Shown: positions 43,701 through 61,018, numbered from the stretch's first letter. The stretch: DNA of 64,000 bases from Candidatus Stahliibacteriota bacterium (GCA_004375895.1 SOJW01000020.1:1170-65169); one strand, 5' to 3'. Program-made: numbers and translations. The notes: a model not told the origin generated them from the sequence alone.

Positions 43701-45330
43701 GTTTATTGAGGATATCGTGGGTGTGAATGTCGATCTCAAGCTTCTCGCCAGGCTCCACCACGTAGCGGGTGGGTTTCAGGTCAACCAGCACTGCGGAGGA
43801 GGCCACGAACGCTGAGGCCTCACCGGATTCAGCACGACGGGATTCGTCCCGGACCTGCGCCTCGAAGGTGTAGCGGTAGTTGCGGTCCTTCTTGGGTGTG
43901 ACGTAGGTGAAGGTGATGCGGCCCTGCGAGTCGGTCTTGCCGGCAAGCTCGTCCACGTAGGAGGTGCCGTACCAGTAGTAGCGATGGTGCTCGCGTCTGT
44001 ATATCTTCAGCTTGGTCTCCGCCTTGGCCACCGGAGCGCCGAAGAAGTAGTCGGCCGCCACCTCGATCTTTACCGTATCGCCCTGCACGTACTGCTCGGC
44101 GTCTAGCTCAACCTCCACCTTGTAGGAGGGCTTGCGGTACTCCTCCACCCGGAACTGAACCGAGTGGTAGGTTTCCTCAAGGGTGGCGCTTAACGTATAT
44201 CTTCCCAGACGTGATGATGAGGGCACTATCAACGAGTCCGCAAACGCACCCCAGGAGTCACTGGCGAGGGCGTGTCGGTAGATCTCGTTGCCCTCTGGAT
44301 CTGTCACCACCACCTCGACCTCATCGCCTGCAGGGGTACGGTAGGTGCCGCGGCGCATCCGCCGGACTACTCCCTTGAAGTAGACGGTCTGGTCAGGCCG
44401 GTAGATGGGTCGTTCGGTGTGCAGATAGACCTTTATTGCCCCGTCCTGACCCTCCTCATCGGAATAGTAGTAGTACTTATCCAGGAGCGCGAAGTTATCG
44501 CCGTCCTGGACCAGCACCCTTAACCTGGTGGTGTCGAAGGAGGTATGGAAGAGTCCTTTGCCGTCGGTGCGGCCGGTGGCTATCCGGTTGGTGTCCGAAA
44601 GCACCACCACCACTGCCCCTCGGCGAGGCTTGCCGTCTTTTGCGTTCACTGCGAAGACGTATACCTCCCGAGGGTCTTGCTTGGTTACCACAGACATCTC
44701 CGAGACCACCACCGGCGTGTATGCTACGCGCGTCCCGTAGTAGGCCTCAACAAGGTAGACGCCAGGCTTGGTGATCTCAAGGTCTATGGTCTCGTAATGA
44801 TAGCGACCGTAGTAGTAATAGTCGTCCTTATCCTTCTTCTTTTTCTCGAACCCAATAGACCACTCCCGAAGCACCTCATAGCCCTCAAGCCGAGGTATAC
44901 TATTCGGCCCGAGGCGTTCGGGTGTTTCGGCCTCCTTCTTCTCGAGCGGTGGAAGACCGAGATAATCCCTTAACCCTATGCGGCTTTCCTTACTCATCAT
45001 CTCGCGGGCAAGATAGCGGGTGTTGCGCTTGGTTCTATCGCCAAGGCCTTCCAGCATGTGGAAGAAGTTGACAGGCTTGGCCTTGCCCCGCACCCTGGGC
45101 GAGCGCATGTTCTTCTGAGCTTCGAAGAAATCTATCGGGTCCTCGATTGCGTACAATCGGAAGTGGATTACGTCCAAGTCTCTGGTTTCCAGTCGGATCT
45201 CTGTTTCCTCCCCGGGTGAGTATATCCGGGAGGTTGAGAGGTGAATGTAGGGGTGGGCAAAAAGCCCTCCCGTTAAGGTGGCAAGCAAAGCAAGAACTTT
45301 CACGATACCCTCCTTTCGGGGCAGTGGCAA
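40726..45330 (-). CDS. Bacterial alpha-2-macroglobulin with thioester motif
   Basis: 1534 aa; MG-domain repeats; thioester KYPYGCVEQT (codons near 42184..42198); signal peptide. Confidence 0.9.
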   Translation of the reverse strand: MPLPRKEGIVKVLALLATLTGGLFAHPYIHLSTSRIYSPGEETEIRLETRDLDVIHFRLYAIEDPIDFFEAQKNMRSPRVRGKAKPVNFFHMLEGLGDRTKRNTRYLAREMMSKESRIGLRDYLGLPPLEKKEAETPERLGPNSIPRLEGYEVLREWSIGFEKKKKDKDDYYYYGRYHYETIDLEITKPGVYLVEAYYGTRVAYTPVVVSEMSVVTKQDPREVYVFAVNAKDGKPRRGAVVVVLSDTNRIATGRTDGKGLFHTSFDTTRLRVLVQDGDNFALLDKYYYYSDEEGQDGAIKVYLHTERPIYRPDQTVYFKGVVRRMRRGTYRTPAGDEVEVVVTDPEGNEIYRHALASDSWGAFADSLIVPSSSRLGRYTLSATLEETYHSVQFRVEEYRKPSYKVEVELDAEQYVQGDTVKIEVAADYFFGAPVAKAETKLKIYRREHHRYYWYGTSYVDELAGKTDSQGRITFTYVTPKKDRNYRYTFEAQVRDESRRAESGEASAFVASSAVLVDLKPTRYVVEPGEKLEIDIHTHDILNKPVPGTVEIVVYRHYWDKEDKVLARKTTSTGKIGFTTFTFTPSQAGPYYVIAKAKDKQGNESEEKRWFYSSERGGYYTWKTDRIQIIFDAETYEVGDWAEALVITPYENASIIASLEADNLYDVDIIELEGNTAMLRFKVRSMFVPNVFLSVCGIYEGEFFEHKEKMLVNRKARMLTVELVPERQRYEPGERAKLNVLVKDVRGKPIKADISLAVVDEALYSLAAEIAPSIEDYFYGERADQVATSSSVYYSFYGYERQYQRLSAAAADSVVLAAYKGREEPKVRKKFKDVAYWNAFVRTDGSGRAQVELIWPDNLTTWRATARAISMDTKVGESREKILVTKDLLVRIVPPRFVTERDSLVIPTIVHNYTPTSQEVRLSFSVKGLKLFDNTTHTDTIQPGSTFRVDWPVRCEAPGDVTLIAKAIGTDASDAMQLTIPANPHGIERNLVISAFMPKPDQGIARTFSIPEEAELRTITGKLTLTPTLSSALFAGLSYLAKYPYGCVEQTMSCFFPDLVVADLIRDPKRGDPQLAAELPKMIAKGLAKLYGYQHSDGGWGWFEHDETMHFNTTYVMHGLLYATQLGYDVNPTVIRRGLEAINRMLRKDKDVATTDRAYMLYALSMAPDQDKEFIKAQLLALEKTQLDPYSQAFMALSYHEIGEDPKARQTLERLKQEAIADEEMVYWSGRVHIFARWQDDPVEITATTLRAFLAIYPSEGMIPKIIYWLLRERRGNHWKSSKDSALALLALAEFFKTTKDTSPRMEIEFLLNNRRIASYKISQYEILQFNRPLDLELSGVVHGENSLKIHKKGSGNLFTSLVFSYYSKEEGITAGGTDLKITREYYRLIPRVEKDRLVYDKKRLSGPVKVGEPLFVKLFVDCTENFEYVMIQDPIPAGFEVVKDNSRYPISGERYWRGYYDYESWGYMYSGREIHDDHTALFISRLWGGRRELSYVIEPYLPGVYHTMPAVVSLMYFPDKRGHSSEAVITVIEE

Positions 45331-45426: not shown

Positions 45427-46143
45427 TCAGTCCAGTATCTTGAACCTGTAGAACCCGGCAAAGGCTGGATTCGCCTCATCCGGCCGCCAGGTCTCCTCGT
45501 CAAGCGACATAAGCGTCTCAAACTTAACCAATCTCATCTCCCCCGGCGTCTCTTCGCCCGAAACGCCGTCCGCTCCCGGCCCTGTGTGATAAAGCACGTA
45601 TGGCTCGCCCTTAAGCTCAAAGTAGATCATCACGTGCGAGGACTTGTCTTTTGGCGTGAAGAACAACAAATCCCCTGCCAGCACACCATCGTCCAACCTT
45701 CTCGTGAGCTTTACCGTATGGTAATTCATAAGATGCGGAACGTCGGCAAAGTTGCCCAGCTTGCCCCTCTCGCGGTCCCCCGGCTCATACGGACCGTCGG
45801 CCAGGCGAAAGATCTCTGTCCCGATGTAGGGAACCTTCGGGTAGTGAAACGCCGCGATCTCCGGGATCGAGGGGTCTAAGAGCTCGCCGAACTGCGCGCG
45901 CCAATCCTCGTCATGGGACTTGAGTGCCTCCCTGTATGAATACAGAACAAGGCCTGCGCAGTCTCTAACGTCATCTTGCGGGTTAAGGTGTCTTGATAGC
46001 GCTATGGTTACAAACCATCGGCGGAAGTTGTGGCGGTCGGCTGATGTTTTGAGCTCTGCCGCGTCAGGGAAGCCGTCTCTGTCCGCATCCACGGCTTGAT
46101 GTGGGGTTGCTCCCAGGATAAAGAGAAATATCAAGGTATACAT
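45427..46143 (-). CDS. DUF1175 (YfaT-like) protein
   Basis: GAGGAGGAG SD + ATG 46143; DADRDGFPDAAEL...FRRWF...DCAGLVLYSYREAL; the longer ORF to 46329 overlaps the tRNA. Confidence 0.7.
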   Translation of the reverse strand: MYTLIFLFILGATPHQAVDADRDGFPDAAELKTSADRHNFRRWFVTIALSRHLNPQDDVRDCAGLVLYSYREALKSHDEDWRAQFGELLDPSIPEIAAFHYPKVPYIGTEIFRLADGPYEPGDRERGKLGNFADVPHLMNYHTVKLTRRLDDGVLAGDLLFFTPKDKSSHVMIYFELKGEPYVLYHTGPGADGVSGEETPGEMRLVKFETLMSLDEETWRPDEANPAFAGFYRFKILD

Positions 46144-46225
46144 TCTTTTCTCCTCCTCAATTGTTAGAATCTGTACCGTTATTTGACGCCACAAGCGACC
46201 CAAAAGGTTTGCTCTTCGGTTTGGC

Positions 46226-46254
46226 AGTATAGAGCGGTTGGGCTTTATTGTCAA
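46226..46254 (-). promoter_or_regulatory. Consensus sigma-70 promoter of the DUF1175/A2M operon
   Basis: Minus strand TTGACA-17 nt-TATACT. Confidence 0.65.
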
Positions 46255-46282
46255 GTAACTCCAGTTCACCAATAAAGGTGAA

Positions 46283-46300
46283 CCGGGCCTTGTTGCCCGG
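46283..46300 (-). terminator. Hairpin just 3' of tRNA-Thr
   Basis: CCGGGCaacaagGCCCGG followed by a T-rich run. Confidence 0.5.
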
Positions 46301-46305
46301 CTGTA

Positions 46306-46377
46306 AGCCGACGAGTGGATTCGAACCACCGGCCTACGCTTTACGAAAGCGTTGCTCTACCGCTGAGCTACGTCGGC
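46306..46377 (-). tRNA. tRNA-Thr (anticodon CGT)
   Basis: GCCGACG/CGTCGGC acceptor, GCTC/GAGC D-stem, ACGCT-TTCGTAA-AGCGT anticodon arm, GGTGG-TTCGAAT-CCACT T-arm; 72 nt, no encoded CCA. Confidence 0.9.
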
Positions 46378-46716: not shown

Positions 46717-47565
46717 ATGAATGAAATGAAAGGCAAGGTCTGCCTGGTGACAGGGGCGAACTCGGGGATTGGCAAGGAAACCGCTCTGGGATTGGCAAAG
46801 ATGGGCGCGACCGTAGTTATGGCCTGCCGCAGCAAGGAACGAGGCGAGGCAGCCAGGCTCGAGATCAAGAGGGAGAGCGGAAACACCTCGGTTGATCTGA
46901 TGCTTGCCGACCTCTCATCGCAGAGCCAGATTTACAGGCTGGCAAAGGAATTTAAGGAGCGCTATAAACGCCTGGACGTTTTGATAAACAACGCCGGGAT
47001 CGGTCTTGCCGAACGAGCCAAGAGCTCCGACGGTATCGAGATGTTCTTCGCCGTCAACCATATCGCACCTTTTTTGTTAACTCACCTGCTGCTTGAACGG
47101 CTCAAGGCCAGCGCTCCGTCCCGCATAGTCAACGTTTCCTCCTTCATGCACGCATGGGTGAATGGGTTAAATCTTAACGAACTACCAGGCAGGGAAAAAT
47201 TCTTCGGTATCCCAGCATATACCCACTCCAAGCTTGCCCTGCTCATGTTCAGCTACGAACTCGCGCGGCGGCTCGCAGGAACCGGGGTCACGGTCAACGC
47301 ACTCAATCCTGGCTTTGTGAAGACCAACGTGGGGCATCAGGTCAGGGGAGCTCTTAGGATAGTCAGGTGGGTGATTTTTAACGTCTTTCGGGCGATTACT
47401 CCCCAGGAAGGTGCGCAAACCAGCATCTATCTGGCGTCCTCACCTGAGGTGGAGGGCGTCACCGGAAAGTATTTCTCTAAGCAAAAGCTCAAAGCCTCTT
47501 ATGACCGCGAGGCCTGGCAGCGGCTATGGAAGGTAAGCGAGGAGCTGACAGGGCTGGCGTCATGA
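46717..47565 (+). CDS. Short-chain dehydrogenase/reductase (retinol-dehydrogenase-like)
   Basis: TGANSGIGKETA, NNAGI, S...YxxxK (YTHSK). Confidence 0.85.
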   Translation: MNEMKGKVCLVTGANSGIGKETALGLAKMGATVVMACRSKERGEAARLEIKRESGNTSVDLMLADLSSQSQIYRLAKEFKERYKRLDVLINNAGIGLAERAKSSDGIEMFFAVNHIAPFLLTHLLLERLKASAPSRIVNVSSFMHAWVNGLNLNELPGREKFFGIPAYTHSKLALLMFSYELARRLAGTGVTVNALNPGFVKTNVGHQVRGALRIVRWVIFNVFRAITPQEGAQTSIYLASSPEVEGVTGKYFSKQKLKASYDREAWQRLWKVSEELTGLAS

Positions 47566-47683: not shown

Positions 47684-49123
47684 TCAGCTTATGTTGAGCC
47701 CCTCCTCTATATCAGTCCATCTCAAGAGATCGAGTATGTTGAAGCGTCCGTCGTGATGCCAGGTGAGTGAAGGAGCGGTCATCTTGCCCAGAGGGCAGAT
47801 GCGATCTGCCCCTAGTTGGCCCATCTTATTCGCCAGGGATAAGAACCTTTCTTGTGGCAGAGCTGCGCCTACCGTCTGCAGGTAGCCCTTTATGGGTTCG
47901 ATCAATCCAACCACTTCTGATACGTCTTTCACCGGCTTGATGCGGATGGTTCGATTCAGACACGACGGCACGAATGCCGGATCGCTCTCGTAGATAACCG
48001 TCCAGTCCGTACCCCGTGAGCTCGCATGAAGTGCTACACCTTGGTCTTCAAACTCCCGGAACTCGTATGAGCCACGTAGCTGGTTGATATGTGCCGATTC
48101 GTCAGGCGAGATCCTCCCGCGAGGGATCTTTTGGTTAAAGGCCTCCATCTCGCTAGCCAACAGCCTCGCAAACTCCTTGGGCGTGGTCTGGCCGCCTTCT
48201 TCGGTGTAGAAGACGTGAGGGGAGAGGCAACCCTGCTGGTCAAAGACTGATGCGTCTATCGCCGCCTGTACCGCCGTCTGCCTGACGCGGTCCGCTGCCA
48301 GGTATTCGCGGCCTATGACCCCGAAGCTGAGCTTATGCCCGTAGGCGATGAAGCGGGTTCGGACAGGAACCCGCTTCCGGACTTCATTCACCGAATGTTC
48401 AGCGCCGTAGACGATCACCGCATCCGAGTAGCCAAAGGCTATCTTTTCGATCTCCTCGTCTCCGCCTTTCCAGCAAACCATAGCGACAGAGCGAGCCAGC
48501 TCAGGATCTACCTCAGCAAGCGATTGGGCGAACAGGGCGGCAAACAACGGCTCCTCAGAGGCGGATTTGCCAAGGATGGCCGACTTCATGAGCAGCGCAT
48601 AGACGATGTTTGCCACAGGCAGCCCTGGGACGTTGCCAGCAAACACGGTGGTCGTGAGGCGAGGCCCATACGCCTTGCACATTCCATCGCTATTCGGTCG
48701 CGGTCGAAACTGATCCAGAAACCGTGGATCGCCTAACTCGTCTTTAAGAAGGAGCCTCAGGTTTTCTCCATTGAACATAGAGATGATCCCATCCAGGGTT
48801 TGGGTGACCATCGGTCCCGAGTAGCCTGTGATTAGGGGCAGCAGCGCCTCGGCTTGTTGCCGCAGGGGGTAATTCCCATCGCTCCAAAGGTCCATAACCT
48901 TGTCTATGGCCTTGATAACGTCATAAACCGAGAGATGGGATAGATACCCTTCTCGCGCCTGGTTGAGGCGCGAGATGACTTCAGACAGCAAAGACGGTGT
49001 GAGCACGGGCGAATGCATCGTAACTCGATCCTTGCCTGTTCCGAACTCAAGGGTTACGAACTCTCCGATGTCAGCCTCATCAAAGCCGGGCAGGAAGAAT
49101 GCTGGAATTGATGTTTCTGTCAT
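47684..49123 (-). CDS. LuxC-family acyl-CoA (acyl-protein) reductase
   Basis: ~480 aa aldehyde-dehydrogenase-like fold with a QQGCLSPH active-site Cys region; follows the LuxE-like gene. Confidence 0.7.
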   Translation of the reverse strand: MTETSIPAFFLPGFDEADIGEFVTLEFGTGKDRVTMHSPVLTPSLLSEVISRLNQAREGYLSHLSVYDVIKAIDKVMDLWSDGNYPLRQQAEALLPLITGYSGPMVTQTLDGIISMFNGENLRLLLKDELGDPRFLDQFRPRPNSDGMCKAYGPRLTTTVFAGNVPGLPVANIVYALLMKSAILGKSASEEPLFAALFAQSLAEVDPELARSVAMVCWKGGDEEIEKIAFGYSDAVIVYGAEHSVNEVRKRVPVRTRFIAYGHKLSFGVIGREYLAADRVRQTAVQAAIDASVFDQQGCLSPHVFYTEEGGQTTPKEFARLLASEMEAFNQKIPRGRISPDESAHINQLRGSYEFREFEDQGVALHASSRGTDWTVIYESDPAFVPSCLNRTIRIKPVKDVSEVVGLIEPIKGYLQTVGAALPQERFLSLANKMGQLGADRICPLGKMTAPSLTWHHDGRFNILDLLRWTDIEEGLNIS

Positions 49124-49131: not shown

Positions 49132-50298
49132 CTACTTCATTTTTTGGGCACTGATCAGCTCGTCAATGGCAACGGAACAACCGCGGGATTCAGCGCCTGC
49201 TGCTCTGCCGACGCATTCAAAACCTCTCCCGATCTCATAGCCGAGGTCGTCGGTCTGTACAGCCTGTACCGTGTTTATATTGCCAAGGGAATAGTGGCGC
49301 AGGAGTCCGGTTTCACCTTTTGGCAATGGCTCCAGGGTATCGGGATCAACAACAAGGGTTCTTGTCCAGGCTGGATTGACCTTGTAGCGCGGTTCTTTCA
49401 AACCCTTCACAAGGTTGCGCAATACGTTATCAGGGAAGACCGCCTGGACCTCGGTCATGCCGTAGTTGTTTAACATGTACTCCGGTGGGACACCCGTAAC
49501 CTCTTGCGCCAGTTTGACGAACTCTTCTCTGGTCAATTCCCTTGATTTGCCTTTGTAGCCTGCACCATCGACGAAACGGCTGCCGGAAGGTAGGTTGAAG
49601 GAAAGGCCCTTTTCACGGCAATAGTCAAAGAAGTGGACATACGCAAATGTCGTGCCCACGATAATCACCGGCTCGCCATCATCTTCTGCCTGCTTCAACC
49701 TCGCGGCAAGGCCCTGAAAATCGAGCCCCTCAGGACCGACGAAGTATTCCAGTTCACCGATATGGTGGCCTTCTATGACTTTGCCTATCCCATATGTTGC
49801 TGTGGCAGTGGCGGGTAGTTTATCCAGAGGGGGTGCGAGCAGCAAGGCATGGAGGTTCTTCTCCCCGGAGGGGTAAAAGAACCCTTCTATGGATTCGAGA
49901 TAGGATAGATCCAGCAATCGAACGCCCATCTCATCCATATGTACCTTAGACCGCCTGGTCTGATCCCGTGTCCCACTGCTCTCGAGGATTCTCACCGCCT
50001 GTTCAGGGGGGAAGGTGCATAGATCGACTTCCTTGAAGGCATCTGTGGGAACTGCAAGAATCTCGGTCCAGGAGCGGATGTCTCCGGGCGCAACACCGCG
50101 TTTCTGGCAGTATTTCCGATAGGGCGTATTCTCATTGTATTGATACTCGAACAGACGAAGAGCCAGTTCATTGAACCTCTCATCGGTGCCTGGTTGATCA
50201 ACGCCGCCCTTTATGAAGGCGGTGATGTCTCGCTCCAGATCGCGGACAAAGTCCGAATCTATTGCATACTTGTTTGTTTTTTTTGTGGTTTTCGGCAT
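49132..50298 (-). CDS. LuxE-family acyl-protein synthetase
   Basis: FNELALRLFEYQYNENTPYRKYC, ESSGT adenylation motif, C-terminal ESRGCS. Confidence 0.7.
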   Translation of the reverse strand: MPKTTKKTNKYAIDSDFVRDLERDITAFIKGGVDQPGTDERFNELALRLFEYQYNENTPYRKYCQKRGVAPGDIRSWTEILAVPTDAFKEVDLCTFPPEQAVRILESSGTRDQTRRSKVHMDEMGVRLLDLSYLESIEGFFYPSGEKNLHALLLAPPLDKLPATATATYGIGKVIEGHHIGELEYFVGPEGLDFQGLAARLKQAEDDGEPVIIVGTTFAYVHFFDYCREKGLSFNLPSGSRFVDGAGYKGKSRELTREEFVKLAQEVTGVPPEYMLNNYGMTEVQAVFPDNVLRNLVKGLKEPRYKVNPAWTRTLVVDPDTLEPLPKGETGLLRHYSLGNINTVQAVQTDDLGYEIGRGFECVGRAAGAESRGCSVAIDELISAQKMK

Positions 50299-50317
50299 TT
50301 AGCTCTCCTTTTTAATA

Positions 50318-50339
50318 CTTGATACTTAAATGTATCAAG
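50318..50339. promoter_or_regulatory. Perfect 8-bp inverted repeat (CTTGATAC-6 nt-GTATCAAG) abutting the luxE-like SD
   Basis: Read directly; lies 20-40 nt upstream of ATG 50298. Confidence 0.4.
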
Positions 50340-50640
50340 CACTTTCGGCTAACGTTTTCAGGCTTTTAGAAGCGGTAAAGCCTGCGTTAGTCTTTGCTGA
50401 AACACCCGCTGTGGGCGAAGCAGTTCTTCATCTCTAAAGAACGACTCTTTTTGTTCATTGATTGATTATAATCAAAAAATTGCATATGTCAAGTGAACAT
50501 TTAGGTCATTTTCCAAATAGGAATGGATAGCCAATAAGACTACAGATGGTTCCATTTAGTTGGTTCCTTTAGATAAATGTAATAAAATAATATTATTTAG
50601 GGATGTTCGGGCATTAATAGAGTGAGTTAATCAAATGGGC

Positions 50641-50668
50641 TTGACAAAGGAAAGAAAAACAGTAATAT
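50641..50668 (+). promoter_or_regulatory. Sigma-70 promoter of the STAS/stressosome operon
   Basis: TTGACA-16 nt-TAATAT, about 150 nt before ATG 50826. Confidence 0.55.
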
Positions 50669-50825
50669 GTCCAAAGATTCCCCGCTTACAAGTATGGGTA
50701 GTGTGGGCATAGAGAACTGTAATGCTTGCTGTGACTGAATCAGGCTTAAAACCAGATTCGCTGCAAGCAAGAGACTCGCTTTTATTGCGCGAGGAAACCC
50801 TTAAATCGCTGAAAGGAGAAGAAAA

Positions 50826-51245
50826 ATGATAGAGAAAACCAAATTCAAACTCTGGTACGACGAGGAAAACGGGGTGATGCGCACAGTTATCTTTGAGACA
50901 TTAGACGCGGAGGCTTCCTCTAGCTTATTCGATTCTATCAAGGACAATTTTGAACCCGAGCAGCACCGCTACTTCCTCGCCGACCTGAGCACCGAGGAGG
51001 CTCAAACCCTCCACGATAAGGAGACCCGCAGGACGTTGCGCAAAAAGATGCCCCAGGTCAATTGGGGTAAGATAGCGATCCTGGGGGCGAACCCCGGACT
51101 CCGGATGCTTACCAAAATCGTAATGACAGCGGTAGGAAAAGCGAGGGATGCCAAGTTCTTCGACAAGGAAGAAGAAGCCCTTGCCTGGTTGAAAGCCGAA
51201 AAGGAAAAGGAAAAGGAAAAAGAAAAAGAGAAGGAATCAAAGTAA
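50826..51245 (+). CDS. STAS-like (SpoIIAA-like) protein with (EK)n tail
   Basis: ...YFLADLS...KIAILGANPGLRM...DAKFFDKEEEALAWL; tail KAEKEKEKEKEKEKESK from a GAAAAG microsatellite. Confidence 0.55.
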   Translation: MIEKTKFKLWYDEENGVMRTVIFETLDAEASSSLFDSIKDNFEPEQHRYFLADLSTEEAQTLHDKETRRTLRKKMPQVNWGKIAILGANPGLRMLTKIVMTAVGKARDAKFFDKEEEALAWLKAEKEKEKEKEKEKESK

Positions 51246-51270
51246 TCACCTCATTGTGAAGGAGTGAAGT

Positions 51271-51915
51271 ATGGCCAAAACCAAAGGGATAGCTGATCTG
51301 GAGAGCCGAATTGCAAGGATGGAAGAGATTCTTTCAGTGGCGGCATGCGGCGATTTCAGTGTCCAGATTGAGATCGATATAGAGAAGGCAGACGCCCTTA
51401 CTGCAATAGAGACCGGGATAAATCTCCTGATTTCCGATATGGGCGACGAGGTCCACGAGAGCACGAAGAAGGCCGAAGAGCTTGAGGAAAAACTGGCCCT
51501 TATCGGGCAACAGCGCAAGGCGATCGAGGAGCTTTCAACACCCATCATCAAGATATGGGATCGGGTGCTGGTTCTGCCCCTTATCGGCACCCTTGATACC
51601 CGGCGTTCGCAGAGACTCACCGAGGCCCTCTTGACTGATATCGCTACCACCCAGATCAAGGTAGCCATCCTTGACATCACCGGCGTTGCCACCGTTGATT
51701 CGGCTGTTGCCAATCACCTGATGAAGACCGTTGCCGCGGTGCAGCTTCTGGGTGCCTCCTGCGTTATCACCGGCATACGGCCGGAGGTCGCCCAGACCAT
51801 CGTGCATCTGGGGGTGGATCTCTCAGGGGTAGAGACACTCTCTACCCTGGCTGAAGGTTTGAAGTGGGCCTTTGGGCGTCTGCACATAAGGATGGTAGAA
51901 GAGCGGAAAGTCTAG
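51271..51915 (+). CDS. rsbR: RsbR-like stressosome protein (short N-domain + STAS)
   Basis: LSTPIIKIWDRVLVLPLIGTLDTRRSQ...AILDITGVATVDS...ITGIRPEVAQT. Confidence 0.8.
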   Translation: MAKTKGIADLESRIARMEEILSVAACGDFSVQIEIDIEKADALTAIETGINLLISDMGDEVHESTKKAEELEEKLALIGQQRKAIEELSTPIIKIWDRVLVLPLIGTLDTRRSQRLTEALLTDIATTQIKVAILDITGVATVDSAVANHLMKTVAAVQLLGASCVITGIRPEVAQTIVHLGVDLSGVETLSTLAEGLKWAFGRLHIRMVEERKV

Positions 51916-51917
51916 GC

Positions 51918-52355
51918 ATGCTAGAGAACACCCCTATTCCTATCCTTAAGCTGAAGGATTTCCTGCTCGTCTCAATCCAGATCGACCTGCACGACCGGAT
52001 GGCCCAGCAGCTTCAGCAAGATATCCTCGAGCGCATCTCCCAGACTCAGGCCAAGGGCGTACTCATTGACATCTCAGCCCTTGAGATGGTTGATTCCTTC
52101 ATGGGGCGCACCCTTGCGGACACAGCCAGGATGGCCTCTACACTTGATGCGGAGATCGTGATCGTGGGTATGCAGCCCGCGGTTGCCATCACATTGGTGG
52201 AGTTGGGGCTTCCCTTAGGTGGGGTAAGAACAGCAATAAACCTTGACGAAGGCTACGAACTCCTGCAGGAGAGCCTGAAGGAGAAGGCCTCAGAGAAGCA
52301 AGGTATCGAGGAGGAAAGCGAAGAAGAGGAAGCGGATGATAGTGGTTCCGATTAA
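51918..52355 (+). CDS. rsbS: RsbS-like STAS protein
   Basis: IPILKLKDFLLVSIQIDLHD...VLIDISALEMVDS...IVGMQPAVAITL. Confidence 0.8.
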   Translation: MLENTPIPILKLKDFLLVSIQIDLHDRMAQQLQQDILERISQTQAKGVLIDISALEMVDSFMGRTLADTARMASTLDAEIVIVGMQPAVAITLVELGLPLGGVRTAINLDEGYELLQESLKEKASEKQGIEEESEEEEADDSGSD

Positions 52356-52728
52356 AGAGGAATCTGACATCGTCCACGCACGCGCCGCAGCAAAAGATGT
52401 GGCTCGAAAGTTAGGTTTCGGGCTTGTTGATCAGACCCGGATCAGCACCGCGGTATCTGAGCTGGCCCGAAACATCTACCTCTACGCAGGCGAAGGAGAA
52501 GTTCACATAGAAGAACACCCCGATTCTCACCGCGGGATTCGCGTAACCTTCATCGATAATGGTCCGGGAATAGATGATGTGGAACTGGCTCTAAAGGACG
52601 GCTGGTCCTCAACGAAAGCCATGGGGAAAGGATTGCCCGGTGCAAAAAGGCTTACTGACCATATGGAGATCAACACCCAACCAGGTCATGGAACCACCGT
52701 CACAATAGAGAAATGGCTGGCGCAATGA
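52336..52728 (+). CDS. rsbT: RsbT-like serine kinase (HATPase_c)
   Basis: ISTAVSELARNIYLYAGEGEV...FIDNGPGI...GKGLPGAKRL...GHGTTV. Confidence 0.8.
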   Translation: MIVVPIKEESDIVHARAAAKDVARKLGFGLVDQTRISTAVSELARNIYLYAGEGEVHIEEHPDSHRGIRVTFIDNGPGIDDVELALKDGWSSTKAMGKGLPGAKRLTDHMEINTQPGHGTTVTIEKWLAQ

Positions 52729-53061
52729 ACGATACAGCTAAACTAAGGATAGAAAAACTTAAGGGATAACCCCAAGATTGACGGCGACGGTTTTTATAAA
52801 CTGTTGGACTTAGTAATTAGCTATAATCCCCCAACCAGGCTTATCTATCTCTCTGGACCAACACTCATTAGAATCTCAAACATATACCCTTCATCTCTCC
52901 ATAATCGAAGCCCACAGTTCTATCGCTTGTATCCAGACAAATTTGCAATTTGAATTGAGCGACACCCTCGTGCACAGAGGCAGGTGAGGCTGTTGTCCAT
53001 CTTTCCCTCACCCTATCACGATACCCTGGTAACAATCTCTTGGCGCACAGACTATTGCCTC

Positions 53062-53089
53062 TTGACATACAGGAATAGACGGATAGAGT
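53062..53089 (+). promoter_or_regulatory. Sigma-70 promoter, leaderless-type, of the TonB-dependent receptor gene
   Basis: TTGACA-16 nt-TAGAGT-5 nt-ATG 53095. Confidence 0.55.
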
Positions 53090-53094
53090 TCGCT

Positions 53095-55437
53095 ATGCGC
53101 AAGGGAATAATATGGGCAGTTCTTTTTCTCACGGAGTTCCTTTTTGCCGCCGAGACCGGAATGGTTGCAGGGTTCGTGCGCGAAGCGGAGTCAGGCGAGT
53201 TCCTGAGCTACGTCAACGTTTATCTCGCGGATAAAAGCATGGGCACCGCCACCAACAAGCAGGGCTACTACGTGCTTTCACGTGTACCCGAGGGCAAGCA
53301 CACCTTGATCGTTTCGATGATAGGTTATCGGGAGGAACGCTTAGAGATAGACGTCAGAGCCGATAAGAGGCTGCGCCGCGACTTCTACCTTAAGCCCCAG
53401 CCCCTGGGTATGGAACCGGTCGAGGTAACAGCGGAGCGTGCGCGTTTCGAGCACGAGGTGGACGTGGGGGTGAAGCGTATGGACTTTACCGAGATGAGGC
53501 AGATACCCGGTTTCGTGGAGCAGGATTTGTTTCGCTCCCTTGCGATGCTGCCCGGGGTCGTTTCAGTCTCCGATTTCACCTCCGCCCTCTATATTCGCGG
53601 GGGAACCATGGATCAGAACCTCATCCTTCTCGACGGGGTAACCGTGTACAATCCATATCACCTTATGGGATTCTTTTCCACTTTCATTCTCGAATCCCTC
53701 AAAGGGGCGGAATTATATACCGGCGGTTACCCGGCCCGGTACGGCGGAGCGATTTCCTCGGTGCTTGACGTGGAGATGAAGGCGGGCAACAGCGAACGGA
53801 TAGCCGGTTATGGAGAGATCGGACTTTTGACCTCCAAGCTTGTCGTAGAGGGGCCGCTTCCCTGGGGTGCCAAAGGTTCCTGGCTCGCGGCAGGACGAAG
53901 GACTTACATCGATGCCATCACCTGGACGCTGGATAAGATATTCAATCCCGATTTCTCCATCTATCTTCCTTACCACTTCTACGATCTTCAGGCCAAGGTG
54001 AACTGGGACGCAAGTGAGCGCTCACGATTCACCTTATCCGGGTTCTTCGGCGACGACGTGCTTAGCTTTAAGGAAGAAGAAGAGGTGGACTTGGACTTCC
54101 GGTGGGGAAACGGAACCCTTGGTTTGAGGTGGCGTTATCTGTTCACGCCTCAGCTTTTCTCGCTTCTGGGGTTCAACGCCACACGCTACCGGCTTGATAC
54201 CGAGGTGATTGAAAGAGACGAACCTGATTTTGAGGAGACGAGTAAGAAAATAGAGGAATATACCTACGGGTTGGAAAGCGGTGTCGGCGAGCTGGGATTG
54301 CAATGGGGGCTGACCTGGTTCAGCGGTCCTGGACATACGGTGGAATTTGGAGTGGAGAGCAAGGTTATAGAGACCATGAACTTCATGGAAGAGGGTTGGG
54401 CGAGATACGATAAGGATAAACGGAATCAACCGGATACCTCCTGGGATACGGTCCGGGTCAACCAGCGCGATACGTTCTGGCTTGCCGCCGTCTATCTGCA
54501 GGACAAGTGGGAGCCTGGTCCGTTCTGGGTCATTGAGACCGGTGTGCGTGGAGAGTATTTCTCGAATGGGAACTACTGGCGTGCCTCGCCCCGATTGGGC
54601 ATCAAGCGTCGCCTTACCGCCGACTGGGCAATAAAGGCCGGGGCAGGATTATACTATCAGTACTTATACGTTCCTTATCCCCGTGACGAGATGATGCTCA
54701 AGATCCCCATTCAGTTCTTCCAGCAATGGATGGGAGCGGCTGAACGTTATCCTCCTCTGAAGTCTACCCTATTTACTTTGGGAACCGAGCATCTGTTTCC
54801 CAAAGACATGAGTGCCTCTGTCGAATTCTACTACAAGGATCTGCGCAACCTGCGGGAGGCCGACCTGATGGGTGGAGAAGGTCCGACTACGGACACGGCG
54901 TCCATAACTCTCGGACAGGGTTACTCCTACGGCGCAGAACTGCTCCTCAAGCGCGGCTACTCCTGGGTCGGCTACTCCTACTCGGTCACACGCTACCGGT
55001 TCGGCGATGAGGATTGGTTCTTTCCCGTGCACGATTCCCGTCACAACCTCAATCTGTCCTTTGCATTGCCCCTGGGCAAGAAGGGTTGGACCCTGACCTC
55101 GGCGTGGGTGTTTTCCTCCGGGTTCCCGTTCACCGCCCAGATCGGCTGGTATCAGCATGTTAATGAAGAGGGAGAGATTGACTGGATGCCTATCTCGGGC
55201 AGACGGGGCGAGGTTCGTTATCCGCCCTATCACAGACTTGATGCAGGCTTCACGAAATCCTTCAGGCTGTTTAAACGCTTTGACGCCGAGTTCTACATCC
55301 AGGTGCTCAACGTTTACGCCAGGCGCAACGTACTCTTCTACGACTACGAGATCGACGAAAACGGAGTCACCCAAAGAGAAGCAGTACCGATGCTGCCCGT
55401 ACCCATACCCAGCTTTGGAATAAGGGCCAGGTTGTGA
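53095..55437 (+). CDS. TonB-dependent receptor with CarboxypepD_reg-like N-domain
   Basis: Signal peptide; GFVREAESGEFLSYVNVYL...YYVLSRVPEGKHTL; plug LPGV...IRGG; C-terminal beta-barrel ending in aromatic-rich strands. Confidence 0.85.
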   Translation: MRKGIIWAVLFLTEFLFAAETGMVAGFVREAESGEFLSYVNVYLADKSMGTATNKQGYYVLSRVPEGKHTLIVSMIGYREERLEIDVRADKRLRRDFYLKPQPLGMEPVEVTAERARFEHEVDVGVKRMDFTEMRQIPGFVEQDLFRSLAMLPGVVSVSDFTSALYIRGGTMDQNLILLDGVTVYNPYHLMGFFSTFILESLKGAELYTGGYPARYGGAISSVLDVEMKAGNSERIAGYGEIGLLTSKLVVEGPLPWGAKGSWLAAGRRTYIDAITWTLDKIFNPDFSIYLPYHFYDLQAKVNWDASERSRFTLSGFFGDDVLSFKEEEEVDLDFRWGNGTLGLRWRYLFTPQLFSLLGFNATRYRLDTEVIERDEPDFEETSKKIEEYTYGLESGVGELGLQWGLTWFSGPGHTVEFGVESKVIETMNFMEEGWARYDKDKRNQPDTSWDTVRVNQRDTFWLAAVYLQDKWEPGPFWVIETGVRGEYFSNGNYWRASPRLGIKRRLTADWAIKAGAGLYYQYLYVPYPRDEMMLKIPIQFFQQWMGAAERYPPLKSTLFTLGTEHLFPKDMSASVEFYYKDLRNLREADLMGGEGPTTDTASITLGQGYSYGAELLLKRGYSWVGYSYSVTRYRFGDEDWFFPVHDSRHNLNLSFALPLGKKGWTLTSAWVFSSGFPFTAQIGWYQHVNEEGEIDWMPISGRRGEVRYPPYHRLDAGFTKSFRLFKRFDAEFYIQVLNVYARRNVLFYDYEIDENGVTQREAVPMLPVPIPSFGIRARL

Positions 55438-56434: not shown

Positions 56435-56476
56435 CCCGTGTTACGGGTTACGGGTTACGGTGTTACGGGTTACGGG
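56435..56476 (+). repeat. GTTACGG/GTGTTACGG array, copy 3
   Basis: cccgtgttacgggttacgggttacggtgttacgggttacggg; includes the stop codon of the GDH paralogue. Confidence 0.85.
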
Positions 56477-57738
56477 AAGATACCTCGTCTCTTGTAGATT
56501 CTCTCCAGTCTGGTAAGTGCCTCGATGCGTGCCGCGGTGCACCAGTCGGTCTTGAACTCCGCTGCGCGGTCGCGCACCCGGTGGTAAGCGTCCTTCATCT
56601 TGTTCTGCAGTTTGCGGTCTACCTCTTCAAGTTCCCACAGCTCGCTTCGTTTGTTCTGCAGCCACTCGAAGTAGCTCACGATCACGCTGCCGGAGTTGCA
56701 CAGGATGTCTGGGAGCACCTCAATTCCCCTCTCCTTCAAGATCTTTGAGCCATCTCGATCGCAGGGGCAGTCGGCTCCCTCGACCACCAACTTGACGTTG
56801 AGCTTGGGTGCGGTCTGGGCGGTGATCTGATACTCCAACGCGGCTGGGATGAATATATCGGCTTTTGTAGCAAGGAAGGCCTCGTGATCTATCGGTTTTG
56901 CATTGGGGTAGCCTGCTATGCGTCCGTTCTCCTTGTCGTATGTCAAAAGGTCGGAGGGATCGATTCCACGAGGGTTATAGATCGGGCCGGAGGTATCCTC
57001 GACCGCAACGAGTTTTGCTCCTTTTTGATTGAGCAAGATGGAGGTCCAAACACCTACACTTCCGAATCCTTGAACCGTGTAGGCAGCACCCTCAAGATCG
57101 AAGCGGTGACCAGCTGCCCATTCCTCGATGGCAAAGACAAGCCCCTGGCCCGCTGCTTTGTCATGCCCGACGCTGCCGCCCAGGTGGATGGGTTTGCCGG
57201 TGACCACGTGTGTTTTGGCCTGCCTTTTTTCCGGAGGCATGGTAGAGAGGTAGGTATCCAGTATCCAGGCCATAGTCTGGGGGTTTGTGTTCACGTCCGA
57301 GGTGAGTATGTCGTACTCCGCTCCGATGTTCGAGCCAAGGGAGTAGGTAAAGCGGCGGGTGATTCGTTCCACATCAGAGAAGTTGTAGTCAGAGGGGTTG
57401 AACTGGACCCCGCCTGCAGCCCCGCCGAATGGGATACCGGCGATAGCCGCCTTACACGTCATCACAGTAGCAAGCGCGCGCATCTCTCCCAGATCAACCC
57501 AGGGATGAAAGCGAAGTCCGCCCGAGTAGGGACCCATCACGTTGTTGTGCTGCACACGATAGCCAGTGAACATCTCCACCCGACCGTTTGACATCTTAAC
57601 CGGGAAGTTGACGGTAATCTCGTTGGTAGTCTTGGCCAGGATTTTGAGAACCTCACGGTCTAGCTTCATCAAATCCGCGGCATTATGGAGCCCCTCAAGA
57701 ACGTCGCCGTAGAAACCGGTTTCCTTCTTCATCATCAC
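56470..57738 (-). CDS. Glutamate-dehydrogenase-family paralogue lacking the catalytic lysine
   Basis: Full-length Glu/Leu/Phe/Val-DH fold, but IPFGGAAGGVQFNP (K->A) and GPYSGGLR (K->S); GFGSVG Rossmann motif intact. Confidence 0.85.
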   Translation of the reverse strand: MMMKKETGFYGDVLEGLHNAADLMKLDREVLKILAKTTNEITVNFPVKMSNGRVEMFTGYRVQHNNVMGPYSGGLRFHPWVDLGEMRALATVMTCKAAIAGIPFGGAAGGVQFNPSDYNFSDVERITRRFTYSLGSNIGAEYDILTSDVNTNPQTMAWILDTYLSTMPPEKRQAKTHVVTGKPIHLGGSVGHDKAAGQGLVFAIEEWAAGHRFDLEGAAYTVQGFGSVGVWTSILLNQKGAKLVAVEDTSGPIYNPRGIDPSDLLTYDKENGRIAGYPNAKPIDHEAFLATKADIFIPAALEYQITAQTAPKLNVKLVVEGADCPCDRDGSKILKERGIEVLPDILCNSGSVIVSYFEWLQNKRSELWELEEVDRKLQNKMKDAYHRVRDRAAEFKTDWCTAARIEALTRLERIYKRRGIFP

Positions 57739-57742
57739 TCCT

Positions 57743-57845
57743 TACGGTTTGCTGTTACCGTGTGTTACGTGTGTTACGGGTGTTATTTCCTTGTGATTCA
57801 AGCTGATTATGAGAATCCCCCGAAGGGGGGCGGGTGTTACGGGGC
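57743..57845 (+). repeat. GTGTTACGG composite element, copy 4 (between the two GDH genes)
   Basis: gtgtgttacgggtgttatttcctt...tgagaatcccccgaaggggggcgggtgttacgggg. Confidence 0.85.
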
Positions 57846-57848
57846 TGC

Positions 57849-59111
57849 TCATGGGAAGATCCCACGTTCCTTGTATACCGTTTCAAGACGTGAGAGAGCG
57901 ACGATGTAGGCCGCGGTTCGCCAGTCTATGTTGTGCTCTCGAGCCGTATCGCGAACGCGTTCGTAGCCTGCAACGATCTTGCGGTGCAGTTTTCCATCCA
58001 CCTCTTCAAGATCCCAGAACTCGCTGCGCTTGTTCTGCAGCCACTCGAAGTAGCTTACGATCACGCCGCCGGAGTTGCAAAGGACGTCTGGAAGAAGATC
58101 GGTTCCCTTTTCATGAAGAATCTTATCACCGTCCGGATCGGTGGGACCGTTTGCGCCTTCGGCAACCAGCTTCACGTTAAGCATGGGAGCGGTCTTTAGT
58201 GTGATCTGGTTCTCAAGAGCCGCCGGGATGAAGATGTCGGCCTTGGTCGCAAGGAAGGTTTCGTGATCAATAGGTTTGGCCTTTGCGTAGCCGCCAATCA
58301 ATCCCTTATTCTTTTGCGTATACTCATAAAGGTCGTCGGGATCGATCCCCTTTGGATTGGCAATAGCCCCGCTTACGTCCTCGACAGCAACGAGCTTTGA
58401 ACCGTGTGGTTTGAGGAGACGGGACGCCCAGGAACCCACGTTCCCGAACCCCTGAACGAAGTATGCCGCACCCTCAAGATCAAAGTTGGTATCTTTGGCC
58501 CACTGCTCGATGGTAAAGACCACACCCTGGCCAGTAGCCTTGTTGCGGCCTATGCTCCCACCCGACTCGACAGGCTTGCCGGTAACTACATGGACTGCCG
58601 CCTGACGCTCGTGGGCAGGCATGGTGGAGAGGTAGGTATCCAGGATCCAGGCCATTATCTGAGGGTTGGTGTTTACGTCCGGTGCAGGGATGTCGAACTC
58701 AGGCCCTATGTTCGAGCCCAGGGCAAAGGTGAATCGGCGGGTGATGTGCTCAAGCTCGCTTGCCGAGTACTTGAATGGATCGATCTGGATGCCGCCTTTT
58801 GCTCCACCGAACGGGAGGTTCACTATGGCCGATTTCCAGGTCATCCAGGTAGCCAGCGCCCGAACCTCATCAATGTCCACGGCAGGGTGATAGCGCAGCC
58901 CCCCTTTGTAAGGGCCAAGCGCGTTGTTGTGCTGCACCCGGTAACCGGTGAACATCTCGATGTGGCCGTTGTCCATCTTAACCGGAAAGTTGACGATTAC
59001 CTCATTGTTGGTTCTAGCAAGTATCTTGCGGATCTCAGGATCCAGATGCATCAAATCAGCAGCCTTGTTAAACTGCTTGGTTACGTTATCGTAAACGCTC
59101 GCCTTTTTCAT
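57849..59111 (-). CDS. gdhA: Glutamate dehydrogenase
   Basis: GPYKGGLRYH, active-site signature LPFGGAKGGIQIDP, PAPDVNT, GFGNVG. Confidence 0.92.
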   Translation of the reverse strand: MKKASVYDNVTKQFNKAADLMHLDPEIRKILARTNNEVIVNFPVKMDNGHIEMFTGYRVQHNNALGPYKGGLRYHPAVDIDEVRALATWMTWKSAIVNLPFGGAKGGIQIDPFKYSASELEHITRRFTFALGSNIGPEFDIPAPDVNTNPQIMAWILDTYLSTMPAHERQAAVHVVTGKPVESGGSIGRNKATGQGVVFTIEQWAKDTNFDLEGAAYFVQGFGNVGSWASRLLKPHGSKLVAVEDVSGAIANPKGIDPDDLYEYTQKNKGLIGGYAKAKPIDHETFLATKADIFIPAALENQITLKTAPMLNVKLVAEGANGPTDPDGDKILHEKGTDLLPDVLCNSGGVIVSYFEWLQNKRSEFWDLEEVDGKLHRKIVAGYERVRDTAREHNIDWRTAAYIVALSRLETVYKERGIFP

Positions 59112-59680: not shown

Positions 59681-61018
59681 TTACTGGGATTCTTCCATCT
59701 TCCTGAGTTTTTCGCGCAAGGTCTTTCGGTCGATCCCCAGTATTTCTGCGGCCTTTGTTTTGTTGCCGTTAACGCTTGCCAACACGTTGCGTATGTGTTC
59801 TGCCTCCACCTCGGCCAATGTCCTTTCAAATCCCTGAGCCTTTGGAGAAAAGCGCATAAGTGCCGGCAAATCCTTAACGTCTATCGTATCTTGCTCCACC
59901 ATAACCACCAGCCGCTGGATTACGTTCTCAAGCTCCCGAACGTTACCGGGCCAGTGGTAGTTCTTTAGAACCTCAAGCGCTTCGTCAGAGAAGCTAGGTG
60001 TGGGTTTGCCAAGCTCCTCTGCAAACTTTTCCGTAAAATGTCGAAGCATCAGGAGTATGTCGTCATCCCTCTCCCGCAGCGGTGGAAGATCAATGGTAAT
60101 GACGTTGAGGCGGTAGTAAAGGTCCTCCCTGAAGCTTTGCTTTTTGACAAGGGCCTGTAGGTCTTTATTTGTTGCGGCAATAATCCTCACATCAACCTTT
60201 TCGGATTTTCGTGAGCCGAGCATGAAGATCTCCTTGTCCTGCAGCACCCGCAAGAGCTTAACCTGCATGGCCGGACTTGTTTCACTGATCTCGTCAAGGA
60301 AGATGGTGCCGCCGTCTGCAGTTTGAAAGAAACCTGCCCTGGTCGTTGCCGCGCCGGTAAACGCACCCTTAACATACCCGAAGAGCTCAGATTCCAGAAG
60401 TTCATGCGGTATAGCCCCGCAGTTGATAGGCACGAAGGGTGGTGAGGCACGCGGGCTTGAGTAGTGGATAGCCCTGGCCACAAGCTCCTTGCCAGTGCCG
60501 CTTTCCCCTGTGATGAGCACCGTAGCCGGGGTTGACGCCGCCTTATGGATGGCGCTGAAGACCTCGCGCATGACCTTTGAGGAGCCGATTATCCCGTGAG
60601 GCGACGGGATATCCTCGGATACCTGCGTGGCCCTGCGCATACGTAGTTTGTCAAGCGCCTTTCTTACCGCCAAGAAAAGCTCCTCGTCGGTAAAGGGCTT
60701 TGAAAGATACTCCTCGGCCCCTTGCTTTACCGCCTGAACAGCACCCTCTACGGTGGCATATCCTGTAATCATCATCACCTCGGTGTCCGCAAGGTTCTCC
60801 CGCACGTATCGCACCAGATCCAGGCCACTTGCCCCGGGCATCTTTAAATCAGTTATCACCAGATCAACCTGGGTGTCTTCAAGCAACCTTAAGGCTTCCG
60901 GCACGTTTTGCGCGGTAAAGACCTGATAACCCTGTGATGTCAGATTACGATCGAGGACCTCAAGGGTATCGGTCGCGTCGTCTACCACCAGGATGCGTTC
61001 CCTTTCAGGTGACGTCAT
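59681..61018 (-). CDS. Sigma-54-dependent response regulator (NtrC family)
   Basis: REC (VVDD...DLKMPG), AAA+ (GESGTGKE, GAFTGA, ESELFGY), C-terminal Fis-type HTH. Confidence 0.92.
   Translation of the reverse strand: MTSPERERILVVDDATDTLEVLDRNLTSQGYQVFTAQNVPEALRLLEDTQVDLVITDLKMPGASGLDLVRYVRENLADTEVMMITGYATVEGAVQAVKQGAEEYLSKPFTDEELFLAVRKALDKLRMRRATQVSEDIPSPHGIIGSSKVMREVFSAIHKAASTPATVLITGESGTGKELVARAIHYSSPRASPPFVPINCGAIPHELLESELFGYVKGAFTGAATTRAGFFQTADGGTIFLDEISETSPAMQVKLLRVLQDKEIFMLGSRKSEKVDVRIIAATNKDLQALVKKQSFREDLYYRLNVITIDLPPLRERDDDILLMLRHFTEKFAEELGKPTPSFSDEALEVLKNYHWPGNVRELENVIQRLVVMVEQDTIDVKDLPALMRFSPKAQGFERTLAEVEAEHIRNVLASVNGNKTKAAEILGIDRKTLREKLRKMEESQ

Follow-up and report, generated by a model that had tools for sequence, protein, structure and literature searches.

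How could a stressosome-type operon work when no output gene lies beside it? This question is raised by a 64,000-nt stretch of DNA from Candidatus Stahliibacteriota bacterium (GCA_004375895.1 SOJW01000020.1:1170-65169; hereafter the window), in which genes for RsbR, RsbS and RsbT follow a gene for a further STAS-like protein, here called Sp1, at positions 50,641 to 52,728. A preliminary description, made from the sequence alone, had presented this operon as an isolated module without a partner. We found instead that an RsbX-type phosphatase, a second RsbS-RsbT pair (RsbS2-RsbT2) and two further Sp genes lie on another contig of the same genome, C54, and that the corresponding parts are joined in a sister genus. 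On balance we favour the reading, with a probability of roughly 0.6, that the window operon is the sensor-and-core half of a stressosome system split over two loci, with Sp1 proposed as its input. The source, an uncultured sediment bacterium of the WOR-3/TA06 group, is represented by a metagenome-assembled genome (MAG) of 2.2 Mb and 89.9% completeness, in which the window lies inside a 131-kb contig, and all genomes compared were likewise MAGs; the closest RsbR relatives (87-90% identity) came from MAGs labelled candidate division WOR-3 or Candidatus Stahlbacteria.

The RsbR-RsbS-RsbT operon

Open reading frame (ORF) calls placed four genes on the same strand between a divergent LuxE/LuxC pair and a gene for a TonB-dependent receptor, as follows.

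50826..51245, plus strand: Sp1, 139 aa, SpoIIAA-like (PF11964/DUF7793), with a STAS fold and an (EK)n tail
51271..51915, plus strand: RsbR, 214 aa, with a seemingly HAMP-like N-domain (residues ~1-60), a stalk helix to ~87 and a STAS region at 93-213
51918..52355, plus strand: RsbS, 145 aa, with one STAS domain and an acidic tail, starting from its true ATG at 51918
52336..52728, plus strand: RsbT, 130 aa, a predicted GHKL serine kinase (HATPase_c_2/HATPase_c)
start ATG at 53095: TonB-dependent receptor, the next gene after RsbT, with a promoter-like site at 53062-53089

The gap of 25 nt between Sp1 and RsbR, the gap of 2 nt between RsbR and RsbS and the 20-nt overlap of RsbS with RsbT fit a single operon. 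Matches in Pfam, NCBIfam and the PDB upheld the original assignment, and judged by these matches the operon is a genuine stressosome-type RsbR-RsbS-RsbT module plus an extra STAS-fold gene. The identification of the next gene as a TonB-dependent receptor with its own promoter was likewise borne out by Pfam and by the promoter-like site.

Pfam placed the STAS domain of RsbR at residues 93-184, and the best PDB matches of the protein were the RsbR proteins of Listeria, Bacillus and Vibrio (E = 3e-30 over residues 78-210). Alignment to 7b0u set T110 (LDTRR) on Listeria T175 (B. subtilis T171) and S144 (VDSAV) on Listeria T209 (B. subtilis T205), the latter a change from Thr to Ser, and both residues were invariant across the 14 short-RsbR orthologues of the family. 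RsbS, a Pfam STAS protein, matched the RsbS of Listeria and B. subtilis best (E ~1e-29), and alignment to the Bacillus and Listeria proteins identified its S60 (VDSF) as the equivalent of B. subtilis Ser59. The phospho-sites were therefore rightly said to be kept, with T110, S144 and S60 all present, but the residues named for them at the outset (DITG in RsbR, DIS in RsbS) were the wrong ones and belong to a DLS-type motif of strand beta-3. RsbT proved to be the complete HATPase kinase that had been described, matching Pfam HATPase_c_2/HATPase_c with its N, G1 and G2 boxes intact; read off the sequence, these are E42/N46, D74-G76-G78 and G97-G99-G102, respectively. With the kinase encoded at R-S-T-X loci of other phyla it shares 41-49% identity.

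The N-domain of RsbR had been taken for a coiled coil of about 90 aa. It is indeed short, but it appears to be more than a coiled coil, with a HAMP-like part of ~60 aa followed by a stalk helix. A profile of 17 RsbR N-domain sequences matched the poly-HAMP histidine-kinase construct 9trk_A (E = 4e-5), in which the segment GDFSV-I-VD...ELT-x-E-x-GINLLI aligned to three of the repeats, and the AlphaFold2 (AF2) model of RsbR (mean predicted local distance difference test score, pLDDT, 78.6; all structure predictions here are of single chains) showed a helix at 10-25, a connector at 26-41 and a second helix at 42-87 that continues into the STAS domain. From this profile-to-PDB search and the predicted helix-connector-helix arrangement, the domain looks HAMP-like. 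Free-standing ORFs of 78-85 aa that consist of this N-domain alone were observed in relatives (L020 5117-5353; L023 649-906 and 5598-5837), where they lie between Sp genes and a full RsbR and are 40-46% identical to RsbR 1-86; they could be gene fragments or separate adaptor proteins.

A second locus with the phosphatase

Contig C54 of the same genome carries, in order, SpA (134 aa), RsbS2, RsbT2, a protein that we call KinPP2C, SpB and a lipoate-ligase-like gene. RsbS2 and RsbT2 are 75% and 72% identical to RsbS and RsbT, respectively. KinPP2C (338 aa) joins an RsbT-like ATPase, 34% identical to RsbT, to a PP2C phosphatase, and a search of the whole genome found it to be the one SpoIIE-type PP2C there. 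Its PP2C half matched MtX of Moorella (3zt9, 5e-14) and RsbX of B. subtilis (3w40, 1e-13) best among PDB entries and keeps the metal-binding Asp motifs CGD, DGLGHG, HSDG and DDAT, and SpB was translationally coupled to KinPP2C in every genome seen. The reported lack of a PP2C thus holds for the window locus, where there is none, but not for the genome, in which an RsbX-type PP2C accompanies the second RsbS-RsbT pair. Conversely, RsbR occurs in one copy in the genome, at the window operon, and C54 has no RsbR.

We considered whether C54 might be a mis-binned contig and rejected this, because both loci recur in G096, an independent MAG of the same genus that represents a sister species, where they lie on contigs of 167 kb and 123 kb with proteins 95-98% identical. 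In the sister genus the parts are contiguous. One locus (L020) has the order nine Sp genes, RsbR, two Sp genes, an ORF for the RsbR N-domain alone, RsbR, RsbS, RsbT, RsbS2, RsbT2, KinPP2C, SpB and the lipoate-ligase-like gene (LplA), and another (L041) has three Sp genes, RsbR, RsbS, RsbT, KinPP2C and SpB. These arrangements indicated a split cluster, of which the window operon forms one half, and a minimal rsbR-S-T-X set that is complete in this genome yet non-contiguous.

At a further locus in a sister-genus genome, L040 (G076:C3), positions 5500-6450 encode a KinPP2C homologue of 316 aa (30% identical) in which, by eye, CGD, DGLGHG, HSDG and DDAT seem lost, which suggests a possible pseudo-phosphatase; after SpB, this locus encodes a REC-DUF4388 protein.

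Search for an output

A search of the genome (89.9% complete) for RsbU_N (PF08673) gave no match at E <= 1. Of the seven HATPase_c_2 matches of the genome, those at the stressosome loci and on contig C73 were inspected, and no RsbV-RsbW-sigma trio accompanied them; further matches lie on C50. None of the four GGDEF genes of the genome lies near either stressosome locus. The genes after RsbT differ in every relative and include those for a TPR protein, a sodium symporter, outer-membrane proteins, glutamate dehydrogenases and, in G096, a leucine-rich-repeat (LRR) protein. Because these genes vary, also on the longer G096 contig (166,987 bp; L038, G096:C22), the search for an output immediately downstream was negative, and the statement that no canonical output adjoins the operon stood even in longer assemblies. 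Neither locus has a canonical output, whether an RsbU_N protein, an RsbV-RsbW-sigma set or an adjacent GGDEF protein or histidine kinase.

A pair of two-component genes lies about 7 kb downstream of the operon in the window.

59681..61018, minus strand: REC-sigma54-HTH regulator, 445 aa, the only one of its kind in the genome
61015..62853, minus strand: histidine kinase, 612 aa

An orthologue of the regulator (83% identity) follows RsbT and two glutamate dehydrogenase genes in L025, and a 41% homologue lies directly upstream of an Sp-RsbS-RsbT-KinPP2C-SpB locus in G076. Between the operon and these genes, the window carries tandem paralogues of glutamate/leucine-type dehydrogenases (56470-59111, minus strand; 422 and 420 aa), and the same pair directly follows the operon in L025. 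Elsewhere in the genome, a STAS-only protein of 116 aa (C18:21273-21623) is encoded where the cell-division (dcw) cluster starts, with an mraZ-like gene on one side and an rsmH-like gene on the other, and is unrelated to the stressosome loci.

Sp1 and the Sp family

The operon was said to open with an additional STAS-like protein bearing an (EK)n tail, and this was confirmed by a match of Sp1 to PF11964 (SpoIIAA-like) at 26.7 bits, against a cut-off of 25, with DUF7793 matching as well. The tail, AEKEKEKEKEKEKESK, is encoded by a hexanucleotide repeat found with Tandem Repeats Finder:

51198..51236, plus strand: (GAAAAG)6.5 repeat within Sp1

The length of the tail varies between species. The ORF itself is conserved, being present in every close relative, with 81% identity in L015 and 48-50% in L016 and L017. 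A profile of 45 Sp-family sequences matched PDB 3bl4 (1e-9), 2q3l and 2ook (range 1e-9 to 0.016). Built with the Sp-family alignment, the AF2 model of Sp1 (pLDDT 96.5) adopted a STAS fold in which the EK tail extends the C-terminal helix, and its top Foldseek matches were SpoIIAA, RsbS and other anti-sigma-factor antagonists. Over 52 family members, however, the residue at the canonical phospho-acceptor position, where helix 2 starts, varies among T, A, S, V and M, and only the flanking K/R...R is conserved; because the acceptor position is not conserved, we rejected Sp1 as a phosphorylatable antagonist of the SpoIIAA/RsbV type. The residues that the family does keep are R68, which is invariant, and R93, A118 and W121, which are nearly so (>=90%); in the model, helix 2 carries R68 at its N-terminal end, and R93 lies where helix 3 begins.

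Sp genes accompany a particular form of RsbR. Most short RsbRs in the loci of the family have an Sp gene directly upstream; in the exceptions, two are preceded by an Sp gene plus an ORF for the N-domain alone, and one (L022) has a gap of 870 nt. No Sp genes were found at loci with TPR-RsbRs (L026, L028) or at those with PAS-RsbRs in f15, a different family within the phylum. In a sample of 121 genomes from the phylum, the Sp family occurred in 12, including all four genomes of the window's family, and RsbT was found in those same four genomes and in f15. Copy numbers were 4 and 5 per genome in the window's genus and 26 and 36 in the sister genus. In the genome with 36 copies (2.5 Mb), about 28 Sp genes stand in tandem within ~10.6 kb (G114:C68:27256-37902), an unusually large expansion for a small signalling protein.

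Control region and neighbouring genes

Sp1 shares its upstream region with a divergent gene for a LuxE-like protein, and the features of this side of the locus are as follows.

50641..50668, plus strand: putative sigma-70-like promoter of the Sp1-RsbR-RsbS-RsbT operon, TTGACA-16-TAATAT (consensus scan, 10/12)
50669..50825, plus strand: 5' leader of ~157 nt, with an imperfect hairpin at 50723-50769
50299..50825: bidirectional control region between LuxE and Sp1, 527 bp, conserved as a unit
49132..50298, minus strand: LuxE-like acyl-protein synthetase (Pfam LuxE, 77 bits), divergent from Sp1
47684..49123, minus strand: LuxC-like acyl reductase (Pfam LuxC, 325 bits), in an operon with LuxE
46717..47565, plus strand: short-chain dehydrogenase (SDR; Pfam adh_short), convergent with LuxC

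Both hexamers of the operon promoter are invariant in four relatives, and a perfect TTGACA-16-TATAAT lies on the minus strand (50492 to 50465) inside the 527-bp region. The leader had been described as structured. Its hairpin does belong to the minimum-free-energy fold, and the leader is 90% identical in four close relatives, in which the hairpin retains only its outer (CTTGCT/AGCAAG) and inner (AATCAGG/CCTGATT) stems. As an RNA element, however, it did not hold up: the fold was no better than those of shuffled sequences (z = -1.06; 26 of 200 shuffles equally stable), an Rfam scan of 50200-53200 at E <= 10 returned noise and no relevant match, and RNAalifold with the four relatives predicted 42 pairs with zero compensatory changes in the hairpin and several of its pairs broken. 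The hairpin is also missing from the more distant cassettes L019a-c, and conservation of the leader does not exceed that of the remainder of the 527-bp region. Given this lack of support from fold, Rfam, covariation and extra conservation, we treated the leader as a conserved 5' untranslated region.

The LuxC gene beside LuxE, and the SDR gene as neighbour, are kept in L015-L018 and in G096. Neither LuxD nor a luciferase turned up in those ORFs of the window that were examined, to which the search was confined. Cassettes of LuxE back to back with Sp number two in G096 and three in L019. The 527-bp region is 96% and 89% identical at the DNA level to those of the two G096 cassettes (L038 8516-9046 and 10918-11444), and these two copies share 86% identity. 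The coding genes that flank it have diverged much further (LuxE dS 1.4-1.6). The region may be an anchor for recombination, a stretch dense with control sites, or both at once.

The proteins around this region have diverged to very different extents. Between the window and G096, identity was 97% for RsbS, 95% for RsbT, 90% for SDR, 89% for RsbR and 85% for LuxC, and fell to 65% for Sp1 and 60% for LuxE; among relatives, LuxE reached 60-62% against 75-97% for the neighbouring genes. The ratio of nonsynonymous to synonymous divergence (dN/dS, Nei-Gojobori method) of Sp1 was 0.69 against G096 (dS 0.31) and 0.70 against L015 (dS 0.12), while the ratios of all neighbouring genes ranged from 0.14 to 0.30, with RsbR, RsbS and RsbT at 0.15-0.30. 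Sp1 is thus the fastest-evolving gene of the locus. At the phosphatase locus SpA and SpB were 95-98% conserved in the same comparison with G096, which indicated that the hypervariability is specific to the LuxE-paired Sp1 type. Synonymous divergence was a mosaic, with dS against G096 of 0.07-0.09 for RsbS and RsbT and 1.56 for LuxE, and dS against L015 of 0.75-0.89 for RsbS and RsbT and 0.12-0.27 for Sp1 and LuxE, implying recombination within the locus. Across 10 cassettes, LuxE and Sp identities were correlated (Mantel r = 0.79, p = 2e-4), with one clear exception, G096a versus L018, in which LuxE is 80% identical but Sp 38%. We discounted this correlation because adjacent genes share their history through linkage and because of that exception, and LuxE-Sp co-evolution is suggestive only. 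PADLOC gave no match on seven proteins of the locus, so that nothing favours a defence-system reading despite the diversification.

Two further observations concern the surroundings. In G096, a 378-aa LRR protein (L038 4984-6120) is encoded convergently between RsbT and the TonB-dependent receptor and is absent from the window. On the far side of the SDR gene, the window encodes a 1534-aa bacterial alpha-2-macroglobulin (40726-45330, minus strand; MG2, A2M, TED and bMG10 domains), and then a DUF1175/NlpC-P60 protein (45427-46329).

Proposed mechanism and alternatives

By analogy with Bacillus, Listeria and Vibrio, the STAS domains of RsbR and RsbS would form a core in which RsbT is sequestered until a signal arrives. 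RsbT would then phosphorylate S60 of RsbS and T110/S144 of RsbR and be released, and the distant KinPP2C would dephosphorylate S60, T110 and S144 and so reset the complex. Where other RsbRs carry a sensor domain, RsbR here appears to have a HAMP-like stub, and Sp1, by prediction akin to the CRAL-TRIO-type proteins that carry small nonpolar molecules, would supply the sensory input by binding this stub or RsbT. Its ligand may be tied to the LuxE/LuxC/SDR genes, of fatty-acid-reductase type, with which Sp1 has its control region in common. A broader form of this idea is that Sp proteins in general are exchangeable, ligand-specific input subunits that dock on the HAMP-like stub of RsbR (or on RsbT), diversifying, shuffled by recombination around the 527-bp region, amplified, and in some cases matched one-to-one with LuxE, so that the hub would read lipid, fatty-acid or aldehyde signals; we offer this broader form tentatively and think it doubtful.

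Several observations weigh against Sp1 as the input of a split stressosome. The complex is predicted from genes alone, and the part given to Sp is argued from gene order and evolutionary pattern. The RsbR N-domain gave no match to the Pfam HAMP model even at E <= 10, and RsbT had no match among PDB sequences, so its orthology rests on domain type and synteny. Sp genes occur without RsbT in families f13, f17 and f20, and in the genome under study a run of genes on C73 (24747-31085) encodes a multi-PAS/GAF histidine kinase of 1654 aa, a response regulator of the LuxR type and a fourth Sp protein; the Sp family is hence not confined to stressosome loci. The large Sp arrays of the sister genus lie far from any LuxE, and the conservation of SpA and SpB means that these two may act differently from Sp1. 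Finally, since the MAG is 89.9% complete, an output gene could be absent from the assembly.

If Sp is not an input it could be the output, onto which released RsbT, or the kinase domain of KinPP2C, would switch; the non-phosphorylatable Sp would then free or bind an effector such as LuxE/LuxC. A STAS protein and a GHKL kinase are the canonical partner-switch pair, the translational coupling of SpB to KinPP2C fits this, and the kinase-binding face of STAS proteins would include the positions of R68 and R93, which are among the most conserved residues of the family. An output should be conserved, however, yet Sp1 evolves fastest in the locus and its family is amplified to dozens of copies, and Sp pairs positionally with RsbR rather than with RsbT, so that we regard an output role as unlikely. 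Decidedly unlikely, too, is a direct effect of the stressosome on the adjacent LuxE/LuxC/SDR pathway, which shares the control region and would need no transcription factor: the back-to-back arrangement of LuxE and Sp is kept in L015-L019 and G096, the intergenic region is exceptionally conserved and LuxE and Sp identities correlate, but that correlation is confounded by linkage and broken by G096a/L018, and complete stressosome clusters (L020, L023, L025, L041) have no LuxE within reach. To our knowledge, a metabolic output of a stressosome has no precedent.

The sigma-54-dependent pair 7 kb downstream might instead be the missing output, much as in the Vibrio stressosome and the two-component outputs of f15, where a STAS protein and a hybrid kinase follow the R-S-T-X genes. 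Its regulator is the sole REC-sigma54-HTH protein of the genome and has homologues near stressosome loci in L025 and G076, yet four unrelated genes on other strands separate the pair from the operon, the linkage may be mere conserved synteny, and the kinase has no RsbU_N or other known RsbT-docking domain; it is a weak lead and, in our judgement, an improbable output. That the leader controls the operon as a riboswitch or other structured cis-regulatory RNA is very improbable, for its length, 90% conservation and retained outer and inner stems are outweighed by the unremarkable fold energy, the empty Rfam result, the lack of compensatory changes, a central stem that is not kept, the absence of the hairpin from distant cassettes and a conservation equal to that of the rest of the 527-bp region. 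A redundant or decaying window operon, with the C54 locus alone functional, might be suspected from the duplication of RsbS and RsbT and the position of the phosphatase, but the window has the only RsbR of the genome, all catalytic and phospho-acceptor motifs are intact, and the dN/dS of RsbR, RsbS and RsbT (0.15-0.30) goes with 95-97% conservation in the sister species; this reading is barely credible and already disfavoured. A split stressosome with Sp1 as its input remains the reading that we prefer.

Comparison with known systems

The components of this system, namely RsbR/S/T, an RsbX-type PP2C, PF11964 proteins and LuxC/LuxE, are all of known kinds. In our literature search, no paper came up that connects PF11964/DUF3478, LuxE-type enzymes or SEC14-like proteins to stressosomes. 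Neither the way in which stressosomes perceive signals nor their targets outside Firmicutes are settled matters (PMC9237108, PMC11821858), and this lineage offers a natural dissection of the system, with a sensor-less RsbR bearing a putative HAMP stub, a separate, fast-evolving STAS-fold partner, a phosphatase fused to a kinase-like domain and no classical output. If Sp proteins are plug-in sensors, they would give a tractable route to stressosome ligands and a function for PF11964, a widespread family as yet uncharacterised; failing that, the locus still shows that the lack of an output next door can mean a split gene cluster.

Compared with the stressosome of Bacillus subtilis and Listeria monocytogenes, the RsbR STAS domain, RsbS and RsbT are encoded in the same order, the equivalents of B. 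subtilis RsbR T171/T205 and RsbS S59 are present and the genome has an RsbX-type PP2C. Differences are that no RsbU-RsbV-RsbW-SigB cascade or RsbU_N protein was seen here, that the globin-like N-domain of those RsbRs is replaced by a seemingly HAMP-like stub of ~60 aa, that the T205 equivalent is Ser, that the phosphatase is fused to an RsbT-like ATPase and encoded at the other locus, and that a PF11964 gene is added.

The four genes rsbR-S-T-X form a conserved minimal stressosome module (PMC9237108), and such modules occur in Vibrio vulnificus, Moorella thermoacetica and many other phyla (PMC9237108; Pane-Farre 2005 and Quin 2012, to the extent that PMC4524716 relays them). Like those of Vibrio and Moorella, the present system has no SigB, a PP2C nearest to MtX/RsbX and an output that is variable or unknown. 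In those modules, however, the four genes are contiguous and an output module usually lies within a few bp, whereas here X is apart from R, the S-T pair occurs twice, Sp genes come in addition and no output module lies alongside; no RsbX-type PP2C directly follows rsbT in the window, where the TonB-dependent receptor comes next.

Within the phylum, the f15 loci (L042, L043) share RsbS, RsbT and a fusion phosphatase of the KinPP2C type. They have three PAS-RsbRs, no Sp genes and, further on, a STAS protein and hybrid histidine kinase that are likely a two-component output, whereas in the window's family the RsbRs bear a seemingly HAMP-like stub, Sp genes are present and a hybrid kinase of this kind is lacking.

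For Sp1 the closest structural relatives are the PF11964/DUF3478 proteins of Shewanella (2OOK, 2Q3L) and Arthrobacter (3BL4), with which it shares the fold, a C-terminal motif of the FF-x-EEEAL-x-WL type and the lack of a phospho-Ser; the Shewanella proteins have been described as CRAL-TRIO-like carriers of small nonpolar molecules (PMC2954212). These relatives stand alone, whereas here the family is found in stressosome operons, is tandemly amplified and evolves fast. The sister species G096 repeats the plan of the window, with SDR, LuxC and LuxE divergent from Sp-RsbR-RsbS-RsbT, and differs in having a second cassette of LuxE and Sp, the LRR gene after RsbT, and Sp and LuxE proteins that have diverged far more than RsbS and RsbT.

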